64,000 nt of DNA, taken from NCBI GenBank assembly GCA_036274115.1, contig DASUGI010000113.1:14211-78210 (forward strand). The letters are read 5' to 3'. Within the stretch, counting starts at the first letter, position 1; each line of letters starts with the position of its first letter. A model generated the notes under the pieces. It searched no databases, was not told the DNA's origin, and was given only the letters and a program-made list of their open reading frames with translations. The translations under genes and the position numbers were made by a program. Shown here piece by piece: positions 56,702 to 63,625 of the stretch. The stretch comes from Verrucomicrobiia bacterium. GTDB lineage: Bacteria; Verrucomicrobiota; Verrucomicrobiia; Limisphaerales; JADLHS01.

Positions 56702-56800
56702 CGCGTCCTTGCCGACGCCTCTCTGATGGTCGCGGTGTGTTCGCACATCGCAAAGTGATTCACCGTAGGTCTTAGCCTGTGTGCTTTGGTCTAATTGATT

Positions 56801-58111
56801 ATGAAACGATTGAACTTTTGGTTGCCGCTTGTGACGACTGTGCTGATCGGCGCGATGACGCCGAACGCAGTGTGTCAGGAGACGAACTCCATTCCGCCCA
56901 CCGCAAGCGTGTCGTTGGACACGCTCGTGACCGAAGCGTTGGAGAAAAATCCTGAACTCAAATTCTATGAAGCGGAATTGGCTGTCGCACGGGCCGGCCG
57001 CAAGAGCGCTGGGTTATGGGCCAACCCGGAAGTGAGCGGCAGCATAGGCCAGAAACGCACCACCGCCGGCGGGCTTTCCGAGGAAGGCCTCGCCTGGTCA
57101 GCCAGCGTGGTGCAACCCTTCGAATGGCCCGGCCGGATGGGCCTGCGCAAAGCAATTGCGAATCGCGACATCGAACTTGCTGAACTGGGCTATCAACGAT
57201 TCAAGGTCGCGCTCGCGTCACGCGTTCGCACGCTCGCGTACGGGCTGTTTGCCGCACAGGAGAAATCCGCCGCCGCCAGCGAAGTGGCCGAACGGTTCAA
57301 GGCGCTCCGCGAGATCCTGATTCAACGCGATCCCGCCGGCCTCACGCCGCTGCTGGAAACCCGTGTCATCGAAGCCACCGAACTCAACGCGCAACGCAAA
57401 GCCACCGAAGCCCAACTCGCCGTCGACTCGGCCTTGCTGGAGTTGAATCAACTTCGCGGCCAGCCCACTGGCACGCGGGTTGTCATCGCCCCATCGCAAC
57501 TGGATTTCCGCCCACTGGAAGAACGCGAGCGCCTGCTTGCGCTTGCACGCACCAACAACTTTGAAATGCGGATGCGCGCCGCCGAACTCGCCCAACAGGG
57601 CTTCCGGGTCGATCTTGCCAGGAACGAACGCTACCCCGCCATCTCTGTTGGTCCGAGCATTTCGGAGGAAAATGCCGGTGATCGTGAGCGGATCATCGGT
57701 GTGGCAGTATCCCTGCCCCTGCCCCTTTGGAATCGCAACAGCGGGAACATCGAAGTCGCTAAAGCACGCCAAACCCAGGCGGAGGTTTCCCTGCAAGTCA
57801 CCGAGCGCGAAATCCAACGGCAAGTCCTCGCCGCCGCATTGACCTACGAAACCAAGTTGCGCGAGATGGCCAAGTGGCGTCCAGACTCCGTGCAGCATTT
57901 CAAGGAAGCCGCCGAACTCGCGGACCGTCACTACCGTCTCGGCGCCGTACCGATTTCCACCTACGTCGAATTGCAGCAGCAATATCTCGAAGCCGTCGAA
58001 AGTTTGCTCGACACCAAACGCGAAGCACTCGCCGCCGCCGCGCAACTCGAAGTGCTCACCGGACTGCCCGAGCCGCTCGCACGCAGCACAGCGGGAGGAG
58101 AATCAAAGTGA
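56801..58111 (+). CDS. TolC-family outer membrane factor (CzcC-like)
   Basis: ALEKNPEL, ANPEV, QPFEWPG, SLPLPLWNRNSGNI, YRLG. Confidence 0.9.
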   Translation: MKRLNFWLPLVTTVLIGAMTPNAVCQETNSIPPTASVSLDTLVTEALEKNPELKFYEAELAVARAGRKSAGLWANPEVSGSIGQKRTTAGGLSEEGLAWSASVVQPFEWPGRMGLRKAIANRDIELAELGYQRFKVALASRVRTLAYGLFAAQEKSAAASEVAERFKALREILIQRDPAGLTPLLETRVIEATELNAQRKATEAQLAVDSALLELNQLRGQPTGTRVVIAPSQLDFRPLEERERLLALARTNNFEMRMRAAELAQQGFRVDLARNERYPAISVGPSISEENAGDRERIIGVAVSLPLPLWNRNSGNIEVAKARQTQAEVSLQVTEREIQRQVLAAALTYETKLREMAKWRPDSVQHFKEAAELADRHYRLGAVPISTYVELQQQYLEAVESLLDTKREALAAAAQLEVLTGLPEPLARSTAGGESK

Positions 58112-58112
58112 G

Positions 58113-58440
58113 CCGGAACGCTCGCCCTCACTCCGGCCCTCTCCCCCAGGAGAGGAGGAAACCCGCTTCCGCCTCACCAGCAGCAAAGCGACAGGATTGC
58201 TCGAGGCTTTGTCTTCCAAATGAGCAAAAGACTGAAGCTGACATCGTCCTTTACGAATCACCCAACCGCATCACGTCACACTGCCTCTCGACGAACCGGA
58301 GCGCCTCCTCTCCCCGTCCCTCTCCTCCATTCGGAATGGAGGAGAGGGTGGCCGGAGGCCCGGAGAAGAGGTGCTCCATTGTTCGAAGGTTCAAAGCGCT
58401 GACCTCGTTTGGGAAAAATCTCCCCCGAGAGGGGCCCGAA
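58113..58440. repeat. Insert with CCCTCTCC..GGAGAGG palindromes (family H) between czcC and czcB
   Basis: CCCTCACTCCGGCCCTCTCCCCCAGGAGAGG (58125-58155), CCCTCTCCTCCATTC-G-GAATGGAGGAGAGGG (58318-58348); AAGTGAG direct repeat at 58106 and 58439. Confidence 0.7.
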
Positions 58441-59214
58441 GTGAGAACGAGCGTTAATCTAATATTGATTGCCTTGCTCCTCATTCTCACTGGTTGTGGC
58501 CACAAGCACGAAGCGGGAGACGGACACAGCCACGACAAGGATGGTCACGGCCATGCGGAAGAATCGCCCTCGGGCGCGTCCTTCAAACCGAACCAGGGTG
58601 TGCTCGTGACCGACGAGACGCGGAAGATTCTCGACCTGCAAACCGCCGAAGTCGCGGAGCAAAAGCTGCCCGCGCAAATCCGTTTCAACCTGCAGGTTTT
58701 CGGCGAAAAGCATCATCACGCCCTCCAGGAGGCCGACCACACCGGATGCGATGTTCACGGCTCGGGATTTCTTCCGCCAGACAAGGTCACTTCCGTTCGC
58801 GCCGGTCAGCCCGTCCAGGTGCAGACCCGCGACAATACTGCGCTAACCGGAGCCGTTCTCGCCGTCGAACCGGCGCTTGCCCTTGGCGAAACTGAAATCA
58901 TCGTCGGCCTCACCAACGCGACTCATAAGGTGAAGCCGGGTGAATTCCTCTCCGCCGTCATCACCCAACCTCGCGACAACACGGTCATGGTCATTCCACG
59001 CTCCGCCCTGCTGCGTACCGCGGAAGGCACCTTTGTTTATACGGTAAACGGCGATGCCTACATGCGGACCGCAGTCAGGATTGGCACCGAAGCCGACGGA
59101 AAACTGGAAATAACTGACGGCCTGTCAGCCGGTGATTCCGTCGTCACCAAACCGGTCGAAACGCTTTGGCTTGTCGAACTCCGCGCCACCAAGGGCGGCG
59201 GGCATTCCCACTAA
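58441..59214 (+). CDS. His-rich, shortened RND adaptor lipoprotein (CzcB-like); alternative in-frame start GTG 58108
   Basis: Lipobox LTGC, HKHEAGDGHSHDKDGHGH, VRAGQPV, VKPGEFL, IPRSALL, VRIG..EITDGLSAGDSVV. Confidence 0.82.
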   Translation: MRTSVNLILIALLLILTGCGHKHEAGDGHSHDKDGHGHAEESPSGASFKPNQGVLVTDETRKILDLQTAEVAEQKLPAQIRFNLQVFGEKHHHALQEADHTGCDVHGSGFLPPDKVTSVRAGQPVQVQTRDNTALTGAVLAVEPALALGETEIIVGLTNATHKVKPGEFLSAVITQPRDNTVMVIPRSALLRTAEGTFVYTVNGDAYMRTAVRIGTEADGKLEITDGLSAGDSVVTKPVETLWLVELRATKGGGHSH

Positions 59215-59221
59215 TTTAAAA

Positions 59222-59806
59222 ATGATGAACTCTCCTGAAACCAAACAACTCCAATCGAAGAAAACCCTCGCCAGCTTCATTTTCCTGAGCCGCTGGCTGC
59301 AAGCCCCGCTCTACCTGGGCTTGATCATCGCGCAGGCAGTTTATGTCTGTCGTTTCCTGCTCGAACTGTGGCATCTCATCGGCTTCGCTCTGTTCAATCA
59401 TGCTGCGCCGGCGTCCATTCCCAAGGACGTCACGGACCCGGAAATGGTCGTGATGCTGACCGTGCTGGGACTGATTGATGTCGTCATGATCGCCAATCTG
59501 CTCATCATGGTGATCGTTGGTGGTTATGAAACGTTTGTGTCGCGCCTCCAACTTAAAGACCACCCCGACCAACCGGAATGGTTATCCCACGTGAATGCCG
59601 GCATTCTCAAAGTCAAACTGGCCACGGCGCTCATCGGCATCTCTTCAATCCACCTGCTCAAGACATTCATTAACGCCGCCAACAAAGACATGGAAGAAAA
59701 GACCATGCTTTGGCAGGTCATCATCCACGTAACCTTCGTGGCATCGGCCATCGCACTGGCGTGGATTGATCGCCTGACGTTCAAGCCGGCCAGCGCTGAA
59801 CATTGA
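59222..59806 (+). CDS. YqhA / UPF0114 (TIGR00645-like) membrane protein
   Basis: SRWLQAPLYLGL, VLGLIDVVMIANLLIMVIVGGYETFVSRL, PEWLSHVNA..LKVKL, ISSIHLLKTF. Confidence 0.88.
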   Translation: MMNSPETKQLQSKKTLASFIFLSRWLQAPLYLGLIIAQAVYVCRFLLELWHLIGFALFNHAAPASIPKDVTDPEMVVMLTVLGLIDVVMIANLLIMVIVGGYETFVSRLQLKDHPDQPEWLSHVNAGILKVKLATALIGISSIHLLKTFINAANKDMEEKTMLWQVIIHVTFVASAIALAWIDRLTFKPASAEH

Positions 59807-59815
59807 CTCCCGCCC

Positions 59816-62800
59816 ATGCTCAATCGCCTCCTGGAATTCTCCGTCCGCCAGCGCGTATTCGTGCTGTTGGCGACGTTGGTTCTGATTGGCATTGGCATTT
59901 ACTCCGCGCTCCGGCTGCCGATCGATGCCGTGCCGGACATCACCAACGTGCAGGTGCAGGTGAACACCGTCGTGCCCGCGCTCGCGCCCGAGGAAATTGA
60001 AAAGCTCGTCACCTTTCCGATCGAAAACGAAATGGCCGGCATTCCCGGACTCACCGAACTACGTTCGCTCTCCAAGTTCGGCTTGTCTCAGGTAACGCTG
60101 GTCTTCGAGGAAGGCACGGACATCTATCGCTCCCGCCAACTGGTGAGCGAACGCTTGCAGACGGTTGTCGAAGACTTGCCCGCGGGCCTCACGCCAAAGC
60201 TCGCGCCCATCAGCACGGGCCTGGGCGAAATCTTTTACTACGTCGTGGAGTATGAAGCGAACCTCAATCGCGGCACGCTCTCATTAGCACCGGGCTTCAG
60301 CCCGGTGAATGGCGGCGCGGAATCACCTTCAGCCGCTTCAGCGGCTTCCCGCCCGGATGAAACCGTTGAAACGGTTTCTGACATTGCGCCACAAAACGCC
60401 GGGCTGAAGCCCGGTGCTAATGAAAACCGGATTCCCGCAACCCGCGAAGCCCAGTTGATGGAGCTAAAGCTCATTCACGATTATCAAATCAGGCCGCGTC
60501 TTCGCTCCACCCCCGGCCTTGCCGAAGTCAATTCCTCCGGCGGCTACGAAAAACAAATCGTCATCCAGCCCAATCCCGACAAACTCAAGAGCGTCGGCAT
60601 GTCCTTCAGCGAAATCGCCGACGCCATCGGTGAAAACGTCGAAAACGCCGGCGGCAGCGTCATCCAACTCGGTGGCGAACAGGTCGCCGTGCGCGCCGCG
60701 GGTCGCGTGCAAACGGTTGAGGAGATCGAACAACTACCCTTGAAGTTTGGTTCGCGCGCCACCCCCTTGCGCGTTCGCGACGTCGCGGATGTGACCATCG
60801 GCAAATCCGTTCGCACCGGCGCTTCCACTTACAACGGTGAGGAAGCCGTGCTGGGCGCCGCGTTGATGCTTGCGGGCGAGAACAGCCGGCTGGTTGCGAA
60901 CGCCGTGGACGCCAAGCTCAAGGAGATTCAGCCGAAGCTTCCTCCCGGCGTGAAAATCATCCCGGTTTACGACCGCACCGTGCTGGTGGACCGCACGATT
61001 CGCACCGTGGAAACGAGTTTGTTTGAAGGCGCCATTCTCGTCGTGGCCGTCCTGCTCATCATGCTCGGCAACTGGCGCGCCGCGCTCATCGTGGCGCTGG
61101 CAATTCCCCTTTCCCTTCTGTTCGCCATGACCGGCATGGTGCAAGGTCGCATCTCCGGCAACCTCATGAGCCTTGGCGCAATCGACTTCGGCCTCATCAT
61201 TGATGGCGCGGTGGTGATGGTGGAGAACATCATCCGGCATCTCGGCGAGAAGCAGCACAAACTCGGACGCCGCCTCACTCCCACGGAACGAGCGCACGAA
61301 GTGCTCATTTCCGCGAAGGAAGTCGCCAGCCCGATGTTCTTCGGCGTGGTCATCATCACTGTGGTTTACTTTCCCATCCTCGCGCTCACGGGCATCGAAG
61401 GAAAAATGTTCAAGCCGATGGCTATAACGGTCATCTTCGCGTTGGTCGGCGCGCTGGCCTTGTCGCTAACGCTCATGCCGGCGCTCTGCTCCTATTTTCT
61501 CGGCGGCAACATCAAGGAGGAAGACAGCTTCCTCGTGAAGTTCGCCAAGCGACTCTATGCCCCCACGCTAAATTACGTAATGCATCACCGCTGGCCGGTC
61601 TCTGGCGGCGCGGTCGGACTGCTGGTTCTTGCCGGATTTCTTTTCACCCGCCTTGGCGCTGAGTTCGTACCGCAACTGGATGAAGGCTCTTTCGCCACGC
61701 ACATGATTCGCACCACCAGCATCGGCATTGACGCCAGCGTGGACATGCAAAAGCGCGGCGAGAAGGTGCTCTTGGAGAAATTCCTGGAGGTCGACTACAC
61801 GTTCAGTCGTCTCGGTACCGCCGAAGTCGCCACTGACCCGATGGGCGTCAACGTTGCGGACACTTACATCATGTTCAAGCCGCCCGAGACGTGGCGGAAG
61901 ATTGATGGCCGCACTGCCACCAAAGATCAACTCGCCAATCTCATGGCTGAGGAACTCGGCAAGCACGTCCCTGGCGAAGCGCATTTGTTCAGTCAACCCA
62001 TCGAAATGCGCTTCAACGAAATTCTCGAAGGCACCCGCGCCGACATCGCGGTGAAAGTGTTCGGCGAAGACTTCGCCGAAATCGAACGGATCGCCAGCGA
62101 AGCCCGCGAGATCCTGGAGAAGATTCCCGGCGCAGCCGACGTGGAATTCGACGCCCTTGGCAAATCACCCTTGCTCGAAATCATTCCCAAGCGCGAGGCC
62201 ATGAGCAAATACAACCTGCACGCGGCTGAGTTGAATCGCGTGGTCAACACTGCACTCGCCGGTCAGGAAGTGGGCAAGCTCATTGACGGCAACCGCCGTT
62301 TCGACATCGTCGTGCGGCTGAGTGAAGACCTGCGCGAACAGATGGACGAACTCAAGCGTCTGCCCGTACGCGTGGACGATGGCGGCTTGCTCACGCTCGG
62401 CCAGATCGCGGACTTCAAAGTCTCCGAACAGGTCGCCGCCATCACGCGAGAATTCGGTCAACGCCGCGCGGCCATCATGATCAACCTGCGCGGGCGCGAC
62501 GTGGAAAGCTTCGTCCTCGAAGCTCAGCAAAAGATTGCTCAAATCAAACTACCCGAGGGCTACTCCATCGAGTTCGGTGGTCAGTTCAAGAACTTGCAGG
62601 AAGCTCGCGCCCGACTCTCCATCGTCGTACCGGTCGCACTCGCGCTGATCTTCGTGCTCGTGTTCATGGCCCTTCACAGTTTGCGCCAAACGCTGCTGGT
62701 TTATACCGGCATTCCCCTGGCCGTGACGGGCGGCGTGTTTGCGTTGTGGGCGCGTGGACTGCCCTTCAGCATTTCCGCGGGCATCGGCTTCATCGCGCTT

Positions 62801-63097
62801 TCCGGCGTCGCCGTGTTGAACGGGTTGATGATGATTTCCTACTTCAACCTGCTGCGCGAACAAGGCCGCGATGTGACCACCAGCGTTCGTGAAGGCGCGA
62901 TGACCCGATTGCGCCCCGTGCTGATGACTGCCTTGGTTGCCTCGCTGGGTTTCGTTCCGATGGCGATTGCCACTGGCGCCGGCGCGGAAGTGCAACGCCC
63001 GCTGGCCACCGTCGTCATTGGCGGCATCCTGAGCTCCACTTTCCTCACCCTCGTTTTGCTCCCGACGCTTTACGAGTGGTTGGAGCGAAATCGGTAG
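59816..63097 (+). CDS. czcA: CusA/CzcA heavy-metal efflux RND permease with in-frame palindromic insertion
   Basis: LPIDAVPDITNVQVQ, GLGEI, SLGAIDFGLIIDGAVVMVEN, RLRPVLMTA, QRPLATVVIGG. Confidence 0.93.
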   Translation: MLNRLLEFSVRQRVFVLLATLVLIGIGIYSALRLPIDAVPDITNVQVQVNTVVPALAPEEIEKLVTFPIENEMAGIPGLTELRSLSKFGLSQVTLVFEEGTDIYRSRQLVSERLQTVVEDLPAGLTPKLAPISTGLGEIFYYVVEYEANLNRGTLSLAPGFSPVNGGAESPSAASAASRPDETVETVSDIAPQNAGLKPGANENRIPATREAQLMELKLIHDYQIRPRLRSTPGLAEVNSSGGYEKQIVIQPNPDKLKSVGMSFSEIADAIGENVENAGGSVIQLGGEQVAVRAAGRVQTVEEIEQLPLKFGSRATPLRVRDVADVTIGKSVRTGASTYNGEEAVLGAALMLAGENSRLVANAVDAKLKEIQPKLPPGVKIIPVYDRTVLVDRTIRTVETSLFEGAILVVAVLLIMLGNWRAALIVALAIPLSLLFAMTGMVQGRISGNLMSLGAIDFGLIIDGAVVMVENIIRHLGEKQHKLGRRLTPTERAHEVLISAKEVASPMFFGVVIITVVYFPILALTGIEGKMFKPMAITVIFALVGALALSLTLMPALCSYFLGGNIKEEDSFLVKFAKRLYAPTLNYVMHHRWPVSGGAVGLLVLAGFLFTRLGAEFVPQLDEGSFATHMIRTTSIGIDASVDMQKRGEKVLLEKFLEVDYTFSRLGTAEVATDPMGVNVADTYIMFKPPETWRKIDGRTATKDQLANLMAEELGKHVPGEAHLFSQPIEMRFNEILEGTRADIAVKVFGEDFAEIERIASEAREILEKIPGAADVEFDALGKSPLLEIIPKREAMSKYNLHAAELNRVVNTALAGQEVGKLIDGNRRFDIVVRLSEDLREQMDELKRLPVRVDDGGLLTLGQIADFKVSEQVAAITREFGQRRAAIMINLRGRDVESFVLEAQQKIAQIKLPEGYSIEFGGQFKNLQEARARLSIVVPVALALIFVLVFMALHSLRQTLLVYTGIPLAVTGGVFALWARGLPFSISAGIGFIALSGVAVLNGLMMISYFNLLREQGRDVTTSVREGAMTRLRPVLMTALVASLGFVPMAIATGAGAEVQRPLATVVIGGILSSTFLTLVLLPTLYEWLERNR
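60281..60423. repeat. 143-bp palindromic element (family G) inside czcA
   Basis: 25-bp perfect terminal inverted repeats TCATTAGCACCGGGCTTCAGCCCGG; inner hairpins AGCCGCTTCAGCGGCT and AAACCGTTGAAACGGTTT. Confidence 0.9.
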
Positions 63098-63159
63098 GGA
63101 CGAGTTCCACCTCGTCCCAAACTTAAACCAAATCAGGGACCGGTGGAACGCGTCCCTAC
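63094..63159. repeat. GTAG-type REP doublet, family F, overlapping czcA stop
   Basis: GTAGGGACGAGTTCCACCTCGTCCC ... GGGACCGGTGGAACGCGTCCCTAC. Confidence 0.85.
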
Positions 63160-63168
63160 CAACCCAAT

Positions 63169-63625
63169 ATGAAATCCATCAAACTATTCACCCTCGCCGT
63201 CGCAGTGTGCGCCACCCTCGCATTGCCGGCCCTCGCCCAGGAAAACCACGGTCATTCACACGTTGCCACTCCCAAAGGCGGACGCGCCCTCGACAAAACC
63301 TCGCCGCTCGCTGAGTTGGTCATCGAGAAGGACCGCACCGTTACCATCAACTTTTACATCGCGGACACGAAACCCGTCGCCGTCACCACGCAGACCGTCA
63401 CCCTCATCGCCGACGCAAAGAGCGGCAAACAAACCCTTGAGTTTGAGAAGAAGGGTGACCCGTTGGCGAGCAAGACCAAGCTGCCCGAAGGCGACGGGTA
63501 CAATCTGGTGGTGCAATTCAAAACAAACCGCCGAAGCCAAGCCACAGAACTTCCGCTTCAAGCTCGACCTCCGCACCTGTGGCGAATGCAAGCGCGCGGA
63601 ATACGCCTGCGCCTGCCATCACTGA
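63169..63625 (+). pseudogene. Frameshifted periplasmic His/Cys-rich putative metal-binding protein
   Basis: Signal peptide + HGHSH..PKGGR; removing one A from the A4 run at 63520-63523 joins ..VVQFK to QTAEAKPQNFRFKLDLRTCGECKRAEYACACHH*. Confidence 0.7.

Follow-up and report, generated by a model that had tools for sequence, protein, structure and literature searches.

A dispersed four-hairpin repeat in frame within a predicted loop of a probably working CzcA-family permease of a Verrucomicrobiia bacterium

The czcA gene of a Verrucomicrobiia bacterium carries, in its own reading frame, one copy of a dispersed repeat with four hairpins. We hold with considerable confidence that an IS200-type Y1/HUH transposase likely placed this repeat, and that a pump which probably still works likely tolerates it as a loop predicted to be disordered. 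Family spread, orthologues, dN/dS and a structure model bear out the original prediction, made from the letters of the window (the whole stretch of 64,000 nucleotides analyzed), that a REP-like mobile repeat has entered a periplasmic loop of an apparently intact CzcA in frame. In-frame palindromic insertions as such are already known, so that a single one is a modest finding; what is added here is the repeat family, which has four hairpins and is not of GTAG type.

The element and its loop in CzcA

The features under discussion are given in window coordinates.

56795..58111, + strand: czcC-like outer membrane factor of the same cluster (profile match, context)
58372..59214, + strand: czcB-like periplasmic adaptor of the same cluster (profile match, context)
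59816..63097, + strand: czcA/cusA-family RND permease, 1093 aa, uninterrupted (TIGR00914, 1279 bits against a cut-off of 701; model, fold search)
60254..60433, + strand: whole non-native segment of CzcA, residues 147-206 (60 aa), where orthologues have a 7-aa loop (orthologue alignment)
60279..60425, no strand assigned: whole four-hairpin REP doublet (REPIN-like), 147 bp or 49 codons, without target duplication (family ends and fold)
60279..60307, + strand: left outer arm, a conserved TY-TCA-TTAG leader and a hairpin (9-bp stem, 2-nt loop), read SLAPGFSPV (family profile)
60331..60346, + strand: left inner hairpin, conserved in the family, read within SAASAAS (fold, family profile)
60360..60377, - strand: right inner hairpin, inverted relative to the left one, read within ETVETV (fold, family profile)
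60397..60425, - strand: right outer arm, an inverted copy of the left one; the frame that reads GLKPGANE is its only stop-free one (frame check)

The predicted palindrome at 60281-60423 was confirmed exactly: it is 143 bp long, its terminal inverted repeat is perfect over 25 bp and has no strict extension beyond 25, and the two inner hairpins are present at about 60331-60346 and 60360-60377. Its boundary had to be moved. Because conservation in the family extends two bases beyond the 143-bp call at both ends (a T at -2 in 147 of 154 ends, a pyrimidine at -1 in 152 of 154), the true element is 60279-60425, which is 147 bp and a whole number of codons. The 143-bp stretch folds better than its shuffled versions both as DNA (z -8.7) and as RNA (-93.7 kcal/mol, z -11.0), with 0 of 200 shuffles as good in either case. 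Since each terminal arm is a hairpin by itself with TTAG in front, the element is a REP doublet with four hairpins, REPIN-like in its build.

The czcA frame is open through the element and reads SLAPGFSPV..ETVETV..GLKPGANE between GLGEIFYY and LMELK, in agreement with the original prediction; both other forward frames contain stops across the element, which leaves the czcA frame as the only stop-free one on this strand. A loop of about 48 residues had been expected. An added loop is indeed present, and its size differs, with 60 residues in place of 7 native ones and hence a net gain of 53; 12 of its codons (9 + 3) flank the repeat and lie outside it. The site corresponds to ZneA 142-147 and belongs to what we take to be the PN2 part of the N-terminal periplasmic porter region.

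In a structure model built from 83 rows, mean pLDDT was 88.7, and values below 50 occurred solely at residues 154-202, modeled as coil between a strand ending at 146 and a helix starting at 210; the low loop pLDDT partly follows from there being a single aligned row. The structure mapping proposed with the prediction thus places the insert in a predicted coil loop of an RND-fold model. The inserted peptide is likely a predicted disordered surface loop, and likely has no function of its own.

The remainder of the protein is that of a heavy-metal RND permease of the CzcA/CusA type, with a TIGR00914 score above the cut-off and an RND fold. The model matched CusA with TM scores of 0.89/0.94, and CusA and ZneA with 0.84-0.89 by query. 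Sequence and fold resemble those of CzcA, CusA and ZneA (TIGR00914; PDB 4K0E, 3NE5) along the full chain, and the difference from ZneA is the 53 extra residues in a loop that is about 5 residues long there. The gene runs for 1093 codons without a stop or frameshift. Residues D457, D463, E470, R1033 and T1038, conserved acidic and basic transmembrane residues among them, are kept, and we take them to have transport roles. The dN/dS of czcA to relatives was 0.05-0.10, as compared with 0.04-0.08 between pairs of empty alleles, and that of two filled alleles, from the genome of the window (G000) and a relative (G008), was 0.099 outside the insert at pS 0.51. Collectively, the sequence comparisons and the model suggest that the pump with its insert is intact and probably working.

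Other repeats lie near czcA. The gap between czcC and czcB (58114-58350) holds further palindromic repeats, from families abundant in G000, and a GTAG-type palindrome pair at 63093-63160, directly 3' of czcA, provides the TAG stop of the gene; CzcA is without the 10-30 residue C-terminal tail of its relatives. A TIGR00645 (YqhA-like) gene stands between czcB and czcA at 59132-59806, and tblastn detected none at that place in the czcB and czcA loci of relatives that were checked. The small exported, probably metal-binding gene after czcA (63169-63625) has a frameshift near 63520 relative to seven relatives. The same frameshift is found in contigs of two other runs and is therefore real in the strain; given this gene, the czc cluster may be in partial decay. 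Positions 60295-60504 are matched without a difference by a contig of 210 nt (depth 5) from an RNA library, which was itself found through this stretch and may contain DNA. No other long piece of that library lies in an 8-kb stretch; this one takes in the hairpin plus the next 79 bases, and may represent either carried-over DNA or a fragment of stable, structured RNA.

Empty and filled alleles at the CzcA loop

The nine closest czcA orthologues were drawn from 30 relatives (loci L011-L018 and L025). The spacing across the loop was 40 in seven of the nine, versus 93 here, and the alignment that had been proposed to define the empty site accordingly returned a native 7-residue loop in these seven. 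An order-wide search in which the filled segment served as query led to 30 fetched loci, and 27 of them had native spacing. Among the matches listed in two collection scans, a single one of 114 loop matches exceeded 54 and was a distant paralogue; these scans rank uninterrupted matches first and are unsuited to counting filled alleles. The combination that was to speak against the prediction, a 25-mer with no other genomic copy and a loop common to the orthologues, is not what was found: the family has other copies and the orthologues lack the loop.

G008 holds a homologous insert at the same codon, with the same arms, related flanking codons and spacers that are 67% identical, compared with a family median of 49% (sd 6). 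The G000 and G008 inserts differ by offsetting 3-nt indels, and the frame is kept in both. A second in-frame copy lies in the linker after residue 565 of the G008 czcA, and its spacers are 78% similar to those of the first. The same loop is occupied in G013 by a 49-residue insert of different, GTAG-type repeats, and in G407, which belongs to another family, by a 45-residue insert of yet other repeats. As judged from these alignments, the CzcA loop is filled at least three times independently. This marks a porter-domain loop of CzcA that seems to have tolerated about 50 extra residues three times independently, and that may be useful for tagging.

The distribution of filled alleles does not follow the phylogeny. 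The rpoB tree makes G006, which has an empty czcA, the sister of G000, and a czcA tree of 14 rows, from which the insert columns had been removed, rejects a grouping of G000 with G008 (AU p 0.001). Because these two filled alleles are not sisters, the pattern does not fit one insertion that was then inherited vertically. A recent exchange of the insert between the two genomes by homologous transfer was considered and rejected, since identity of the flanks shows no rise, and no recombination tract was visible in those flanks. Re-insertion at the same site could account for the patchiness, as could an old recombination over a short tract or ancestral polymorphism carried through a star-like radiation.

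The repeat family and a candidate transposase

The arm pattern was matched in 18 of 24 genomes of the genus and in 51 of 201 genomes of the order, with 0 matches for a reversed control. Copies of the genus were taken from the matches listed, 16 further matches lying outside that list, and copies of other families from 100 stretches of a longer list. Across the family the layout is an outer arm, about 21 variable bases, an inner hairpin, a variable center, the inverted inner hairpin, variable bases and the inverted outer arm, with arms and inner hairpins conserved and spacers variable. No direct repeat was found at the ends in 70 of 72 elements. The highest load was about 100 arm matches in one genome. 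A scan of G000 for the exact 25-mer, as had been suggested, gave 2 occurrences, both within the czcA element; other copies came from the family profile, which recovered 3 full copies and 1 half copy. Those outside czcA are on contig C33, within the nuo operon or next to it; two are intergenic, and the half copy stands at the contig end. Short repeats of G000 fall into dozens of distinct families (92 copies of the most frequent 16-mer), and the genome has 9 Y1 transposase-like loci, of which several are RAYT-like.

Among the matches listed for the genus, 80 full copies were parsed and two unparsed ones dropped; 14 of the 80 are within real genes. These 14 represent 8 sites in 7 genes: czcA twice, and once each a glycoside hydrolase, a P-type ATPase, a cytochrome c peroxidase, a xanthine dehydrogenase, gcvP and a radical SAM queE-like gene. 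Four shorter genic remnants are in gcvP, an FtsX-like permease and ureF. In other families, 1 of 82 copies among the matches listed is clearly genic, at the same gcvP site (G130) and in the TVETV frame, and one long frame around a copy (L449) is neither clearly genic nor clearly non-genic. The gcvP loop (L071, L137, L380, L041) holds the element in two members of the genus and in one genome of another family. The gcvP copy is reduced to a single arm in G017, and a translated heptamer array follows the gcvP loop. When seven loops that the family fills in relatives were checked in G000, 6 held a different palindrome or a heptamer array and 1 was empty. These in-frame palindromes and arrays of other families are on contigs C53, C67, C107, C160, C187 and C367, in loops of the glycoside hydrolase, P-type ATPase, xanthine dehydrogenase, FtsX-like permease, queE-like gene and ureF.

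In several relatives, a Y1 transposase of 150 residues is enclosed by paired arms about 590 bp from each other, with an outer arm and an inner hairpin on both sides. The gene stands between nuoH and nuoI in G008, G005, G013, G017, G032 and G016 (split over two contigs in G016), and these proteins of the genus are 87-91% identical to that of G008. It is found at the same place in G072 and G083, which belong to other families, making eight genomes in all. At least three families of the order have this IS200-type transposase with double-hairpin ends fixed at the nuoH-nuoI junction (L149:1390-2010, which is on G008:C11, L401 and L402), under strong purifying selection. More distant versions with similar ends occur at other places in G007, G004 and G003. 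The transposase has a dN/dS of 0.03-0.07 at pS 0.3-0.7 and carries a Y---Q--HH motif. Its score with the IS200 model NF033573 was 55-63 bits (62.3 in one scoring; cut-off 55), and with the RAYT model NF047646 it was 23-28 bits (24.4 in one scoring; cut-off 80); by these scores it is of IS200 type and not a RAYT.

In its build the 147-bp element resembles both ends of the transposase unit, joined without the gene. Given the shared ends and the missing target duplication, the IS200-type Y1/HUH transposase is likely the mobilizer of the element. In G000 itself, nuoH and nuoI adjoin each other with no transposase in between; the best match elsewhere is 39% (the genome is 87% complete), and for this reason there is no sign of current mobility in G000. 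The repeat flanks none of the 9 Y1 loci of that genome. In the proposed mechanism, the transposase would recognize single-stranded hairpins, and the doublet would be inserted without duplicating its target. Most insertions in genes would destroy the gene and be lost. The survivors would be those that keep the frame, fall in a tolerant loop (in this case past the end of the strand at residue 146, in the presumed PN2 part of the porter) and are read in frame to give small, uncharged or acidic residues.

Survival within genes, rival explanations and known systems

The right outer arm permits a single frame only, and the length of the spacer sets whether the right inner hairpin is read as a TVETV-like peptide, a PLKR-like peptide or a stop. 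The TVETV-like reading is found in all 14 genic full copies (8 sites), versus 12 of the 53 non-genic orientations that are open (Fisher p 4e-5 with 8 sites, 1.3e-4 with 7). In other families the TVETV baseline was higher, at 28 of 58 open orientations, which weakens the test; p is then about 0.003 for 8 sites, calculated by hand. The frame preference is real, yet less extreme than the first p value. The inner peptides of genic copies contain 9% K/R, 6% large hydrophobic residues and 45% A/S/T, as compared with 20%, 22% and 22% for peptides of the PLKR frame. One favored frame, together with a few loops that are reused by unrelated repeats, adds testable signs of survival within proteins.

The arms of genic copies are conserved at silent sites. 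In 5 orthologous pairs, they differ at 2 of 52 four-fold sites versus 21.3 expected from the flanks (czcA arms, 0 of 11 versus 4.8), and the spacers of orthologous genic pairs are 61-84% identical. Codon bias was rejected as the cause, since the arms use several rare codons in a rough table made from long open frames. Conservation peculiar to coding copies was rejected likewise: of 54 arm bases, 2-6 differ in 6 intergenic orthologous pairs and 0-6 in 7 genic pairs. Because intergenic pairs are about equally conserved, the conservation of the arms is the usual REPIN pattern persisting in genes. Mismatches of the worse arm to the consensus averaged 0.43 in 14 genic copies and 1.84 in 64 non-genic copies.

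The silent-site conservation, held despite rare codons and beside diverging spacers, would also suit an embedded element that is still a live substrate, its arms being refreshed, or the doublet re-inserted or copied between alleles, by a domesticated transposase or by conversion from other members of the family. The patchiness of filled alleles on both trees, the second in-frame copy in the G008 gene, the six loops that hold another repeat in G000 and one intergenic site with copies at background spacer identity (0.42) all point the same way. We nevertheless regard this account as doubtful: intergenic pairs keep their arms about equally, which makes arm conservation a trait of the family; just three full copies are present in G000, whose nuoH-nuoI site lacks the transposase; and no excised or empty allele was seen among the contigs of the runs compared, contigs being prone to drop rare variants. 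A broader form of it is equally tentative. There, a domesticated IS200-type transposase fixed in the nuo operon would sustain the four-hairpin family, genic copies would be live, and a few permissive loops would be re-colonized or refreshed by competing families, with protein selection picking the frame. If true, protein loops would be long-term niches for mobile DNA, beyond graves.

It is unlikely that the hairpin is kept, now under host selection, because it acts through the RNA, for instance by pausing ribosomes or stabilizing the czc message. The very stable RNA fold, the conserved silent sites and the closeness of genic copies to the consensus would agree with such an effect, but most orthologues have no hairpin, unrelated repeats occupy the same loop, only one arm of the gcvP copy is left in G017, and constraint on the protein confounds the consensus comparison. 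A crippled pump, with czcA an early pseudogene that is open by chance, is less probable still. The accessory gene downstream is frameshifted, in two other runs as well, and the C-terminal tail of CzcA is shortened by another repeat that supplies the stop; against this stand an uninterrupted frame, a dN/dS like that of empty pairs, two species that hold the insert in frame through offsetting indels, and the conserved transmembrane residues. Assembly error at a hairpin repeat is scarcely credible, even in a fragmented assembly of 417 contigs in which the possible source run, together with the like arrangement in G008, is all that bridges the left junction. One contig of that run spans the stretch with 0 differences, a contig from a different study equals 60279-60657 with 0 differences and so covers the right junction, and the G008 insert at the same codon is diverged. 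The runs that contain the stretch are soil metagenomes, and we take the host to be a soil verrucomicrobium. We favor the likely tolerated insertion of a mobile repeat into a probably working gene.

The original prediction had likened the element to the Rickettsia palindromic elements (RPEs). The likeness in behavior holds, as a palindrome lies in frame in an apparently intact gene and within a loop; identity does not, for no sequence link was found and most copies are intergenic. The insert peptide had no match at E up to 1 in NCBIfam, a library that presumably contains RPE models, an Rfam search of the element gave no match, and the CGTC end tag of RPE type is absent from it. According to the accessible parts of PMC10969869 and PMC3733652, RPEs are likewise palindromes of about 150 bp in frame in apparently intact proteins, and nearly half of them lie in genes. 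The genic share among the matches listed is lower here, both in the genus and in other families, where one copy was clear, and a candidate transposase is present. A closer published precedent, as far as the available portion of PMC3733652 goes, is provided by the GTAG-tagged REPs and REP dimers of Opitutus terrae, which are likewise in frame in ordinary genes of a verrucomicrobium. Its list of 70 intragenic REPs includes a dimer in the RND permease Oter_1122 (residues 511-526); double insertions in a single gene occur there, and a location in loops is suggested.

With REPIN-RAYT systems, as described in the portion of 10.1101/2021.07.10.451892 at hand, the family has in common two inverted palindromic arms with a variable spacer, an element like fused transposon ends, and a single-copy transposase at a fixed site under purifying selection (here in eight other genomes and not in G000). 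REPINs are almost exclusively extragenic in that account; this family is mostly extragenic too, and the czcA copy is an exception. It differs in its extra pair of inner hairpins and in a transposase that is not a RAYT by NCBIfam. The stem is preceded by TTAG or TTAA, not by GTAG at the hairpin foot, and the copies in G000 fall short of the hundreds of a REPIN population. Of the classical features of a MITE, terminal inverted repeats are present and a target site duplication is not. As GTAG, RAYT identity, RPE homology and target duplication all fail, the element was not filed as a REPIN, an RPE or a MITE. A GTAG REP of Haemophilus shares the hairpin core with the family. No description of the repeat family was found in the open-access literature, and the family and its likely transposase appear to be undescribed.

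The transposase resembles TnpA-Y1 subclass 1.2 (PMC6006769) and IS200 Group 3 (PMC5581495), as far as the accessible text of these sources extends, in being an IS200-like protein of low copy number without recent duplicates. Subclass 1.2 is described there as having the Y---Q--HH motif, generally without terminal hairpins, and as mostly cyanobacterial or Bacteroidetes; Group 3 is described as flanked by abundant 16-mers. The likeness to subclass 1.2 is one of motif and copy number, and the transposase here departs from it in having double-hairpin ends and a matching repeat family. It adds a candidate to an IS200-like group whose substrates are left unclear in those portions of the two sources.
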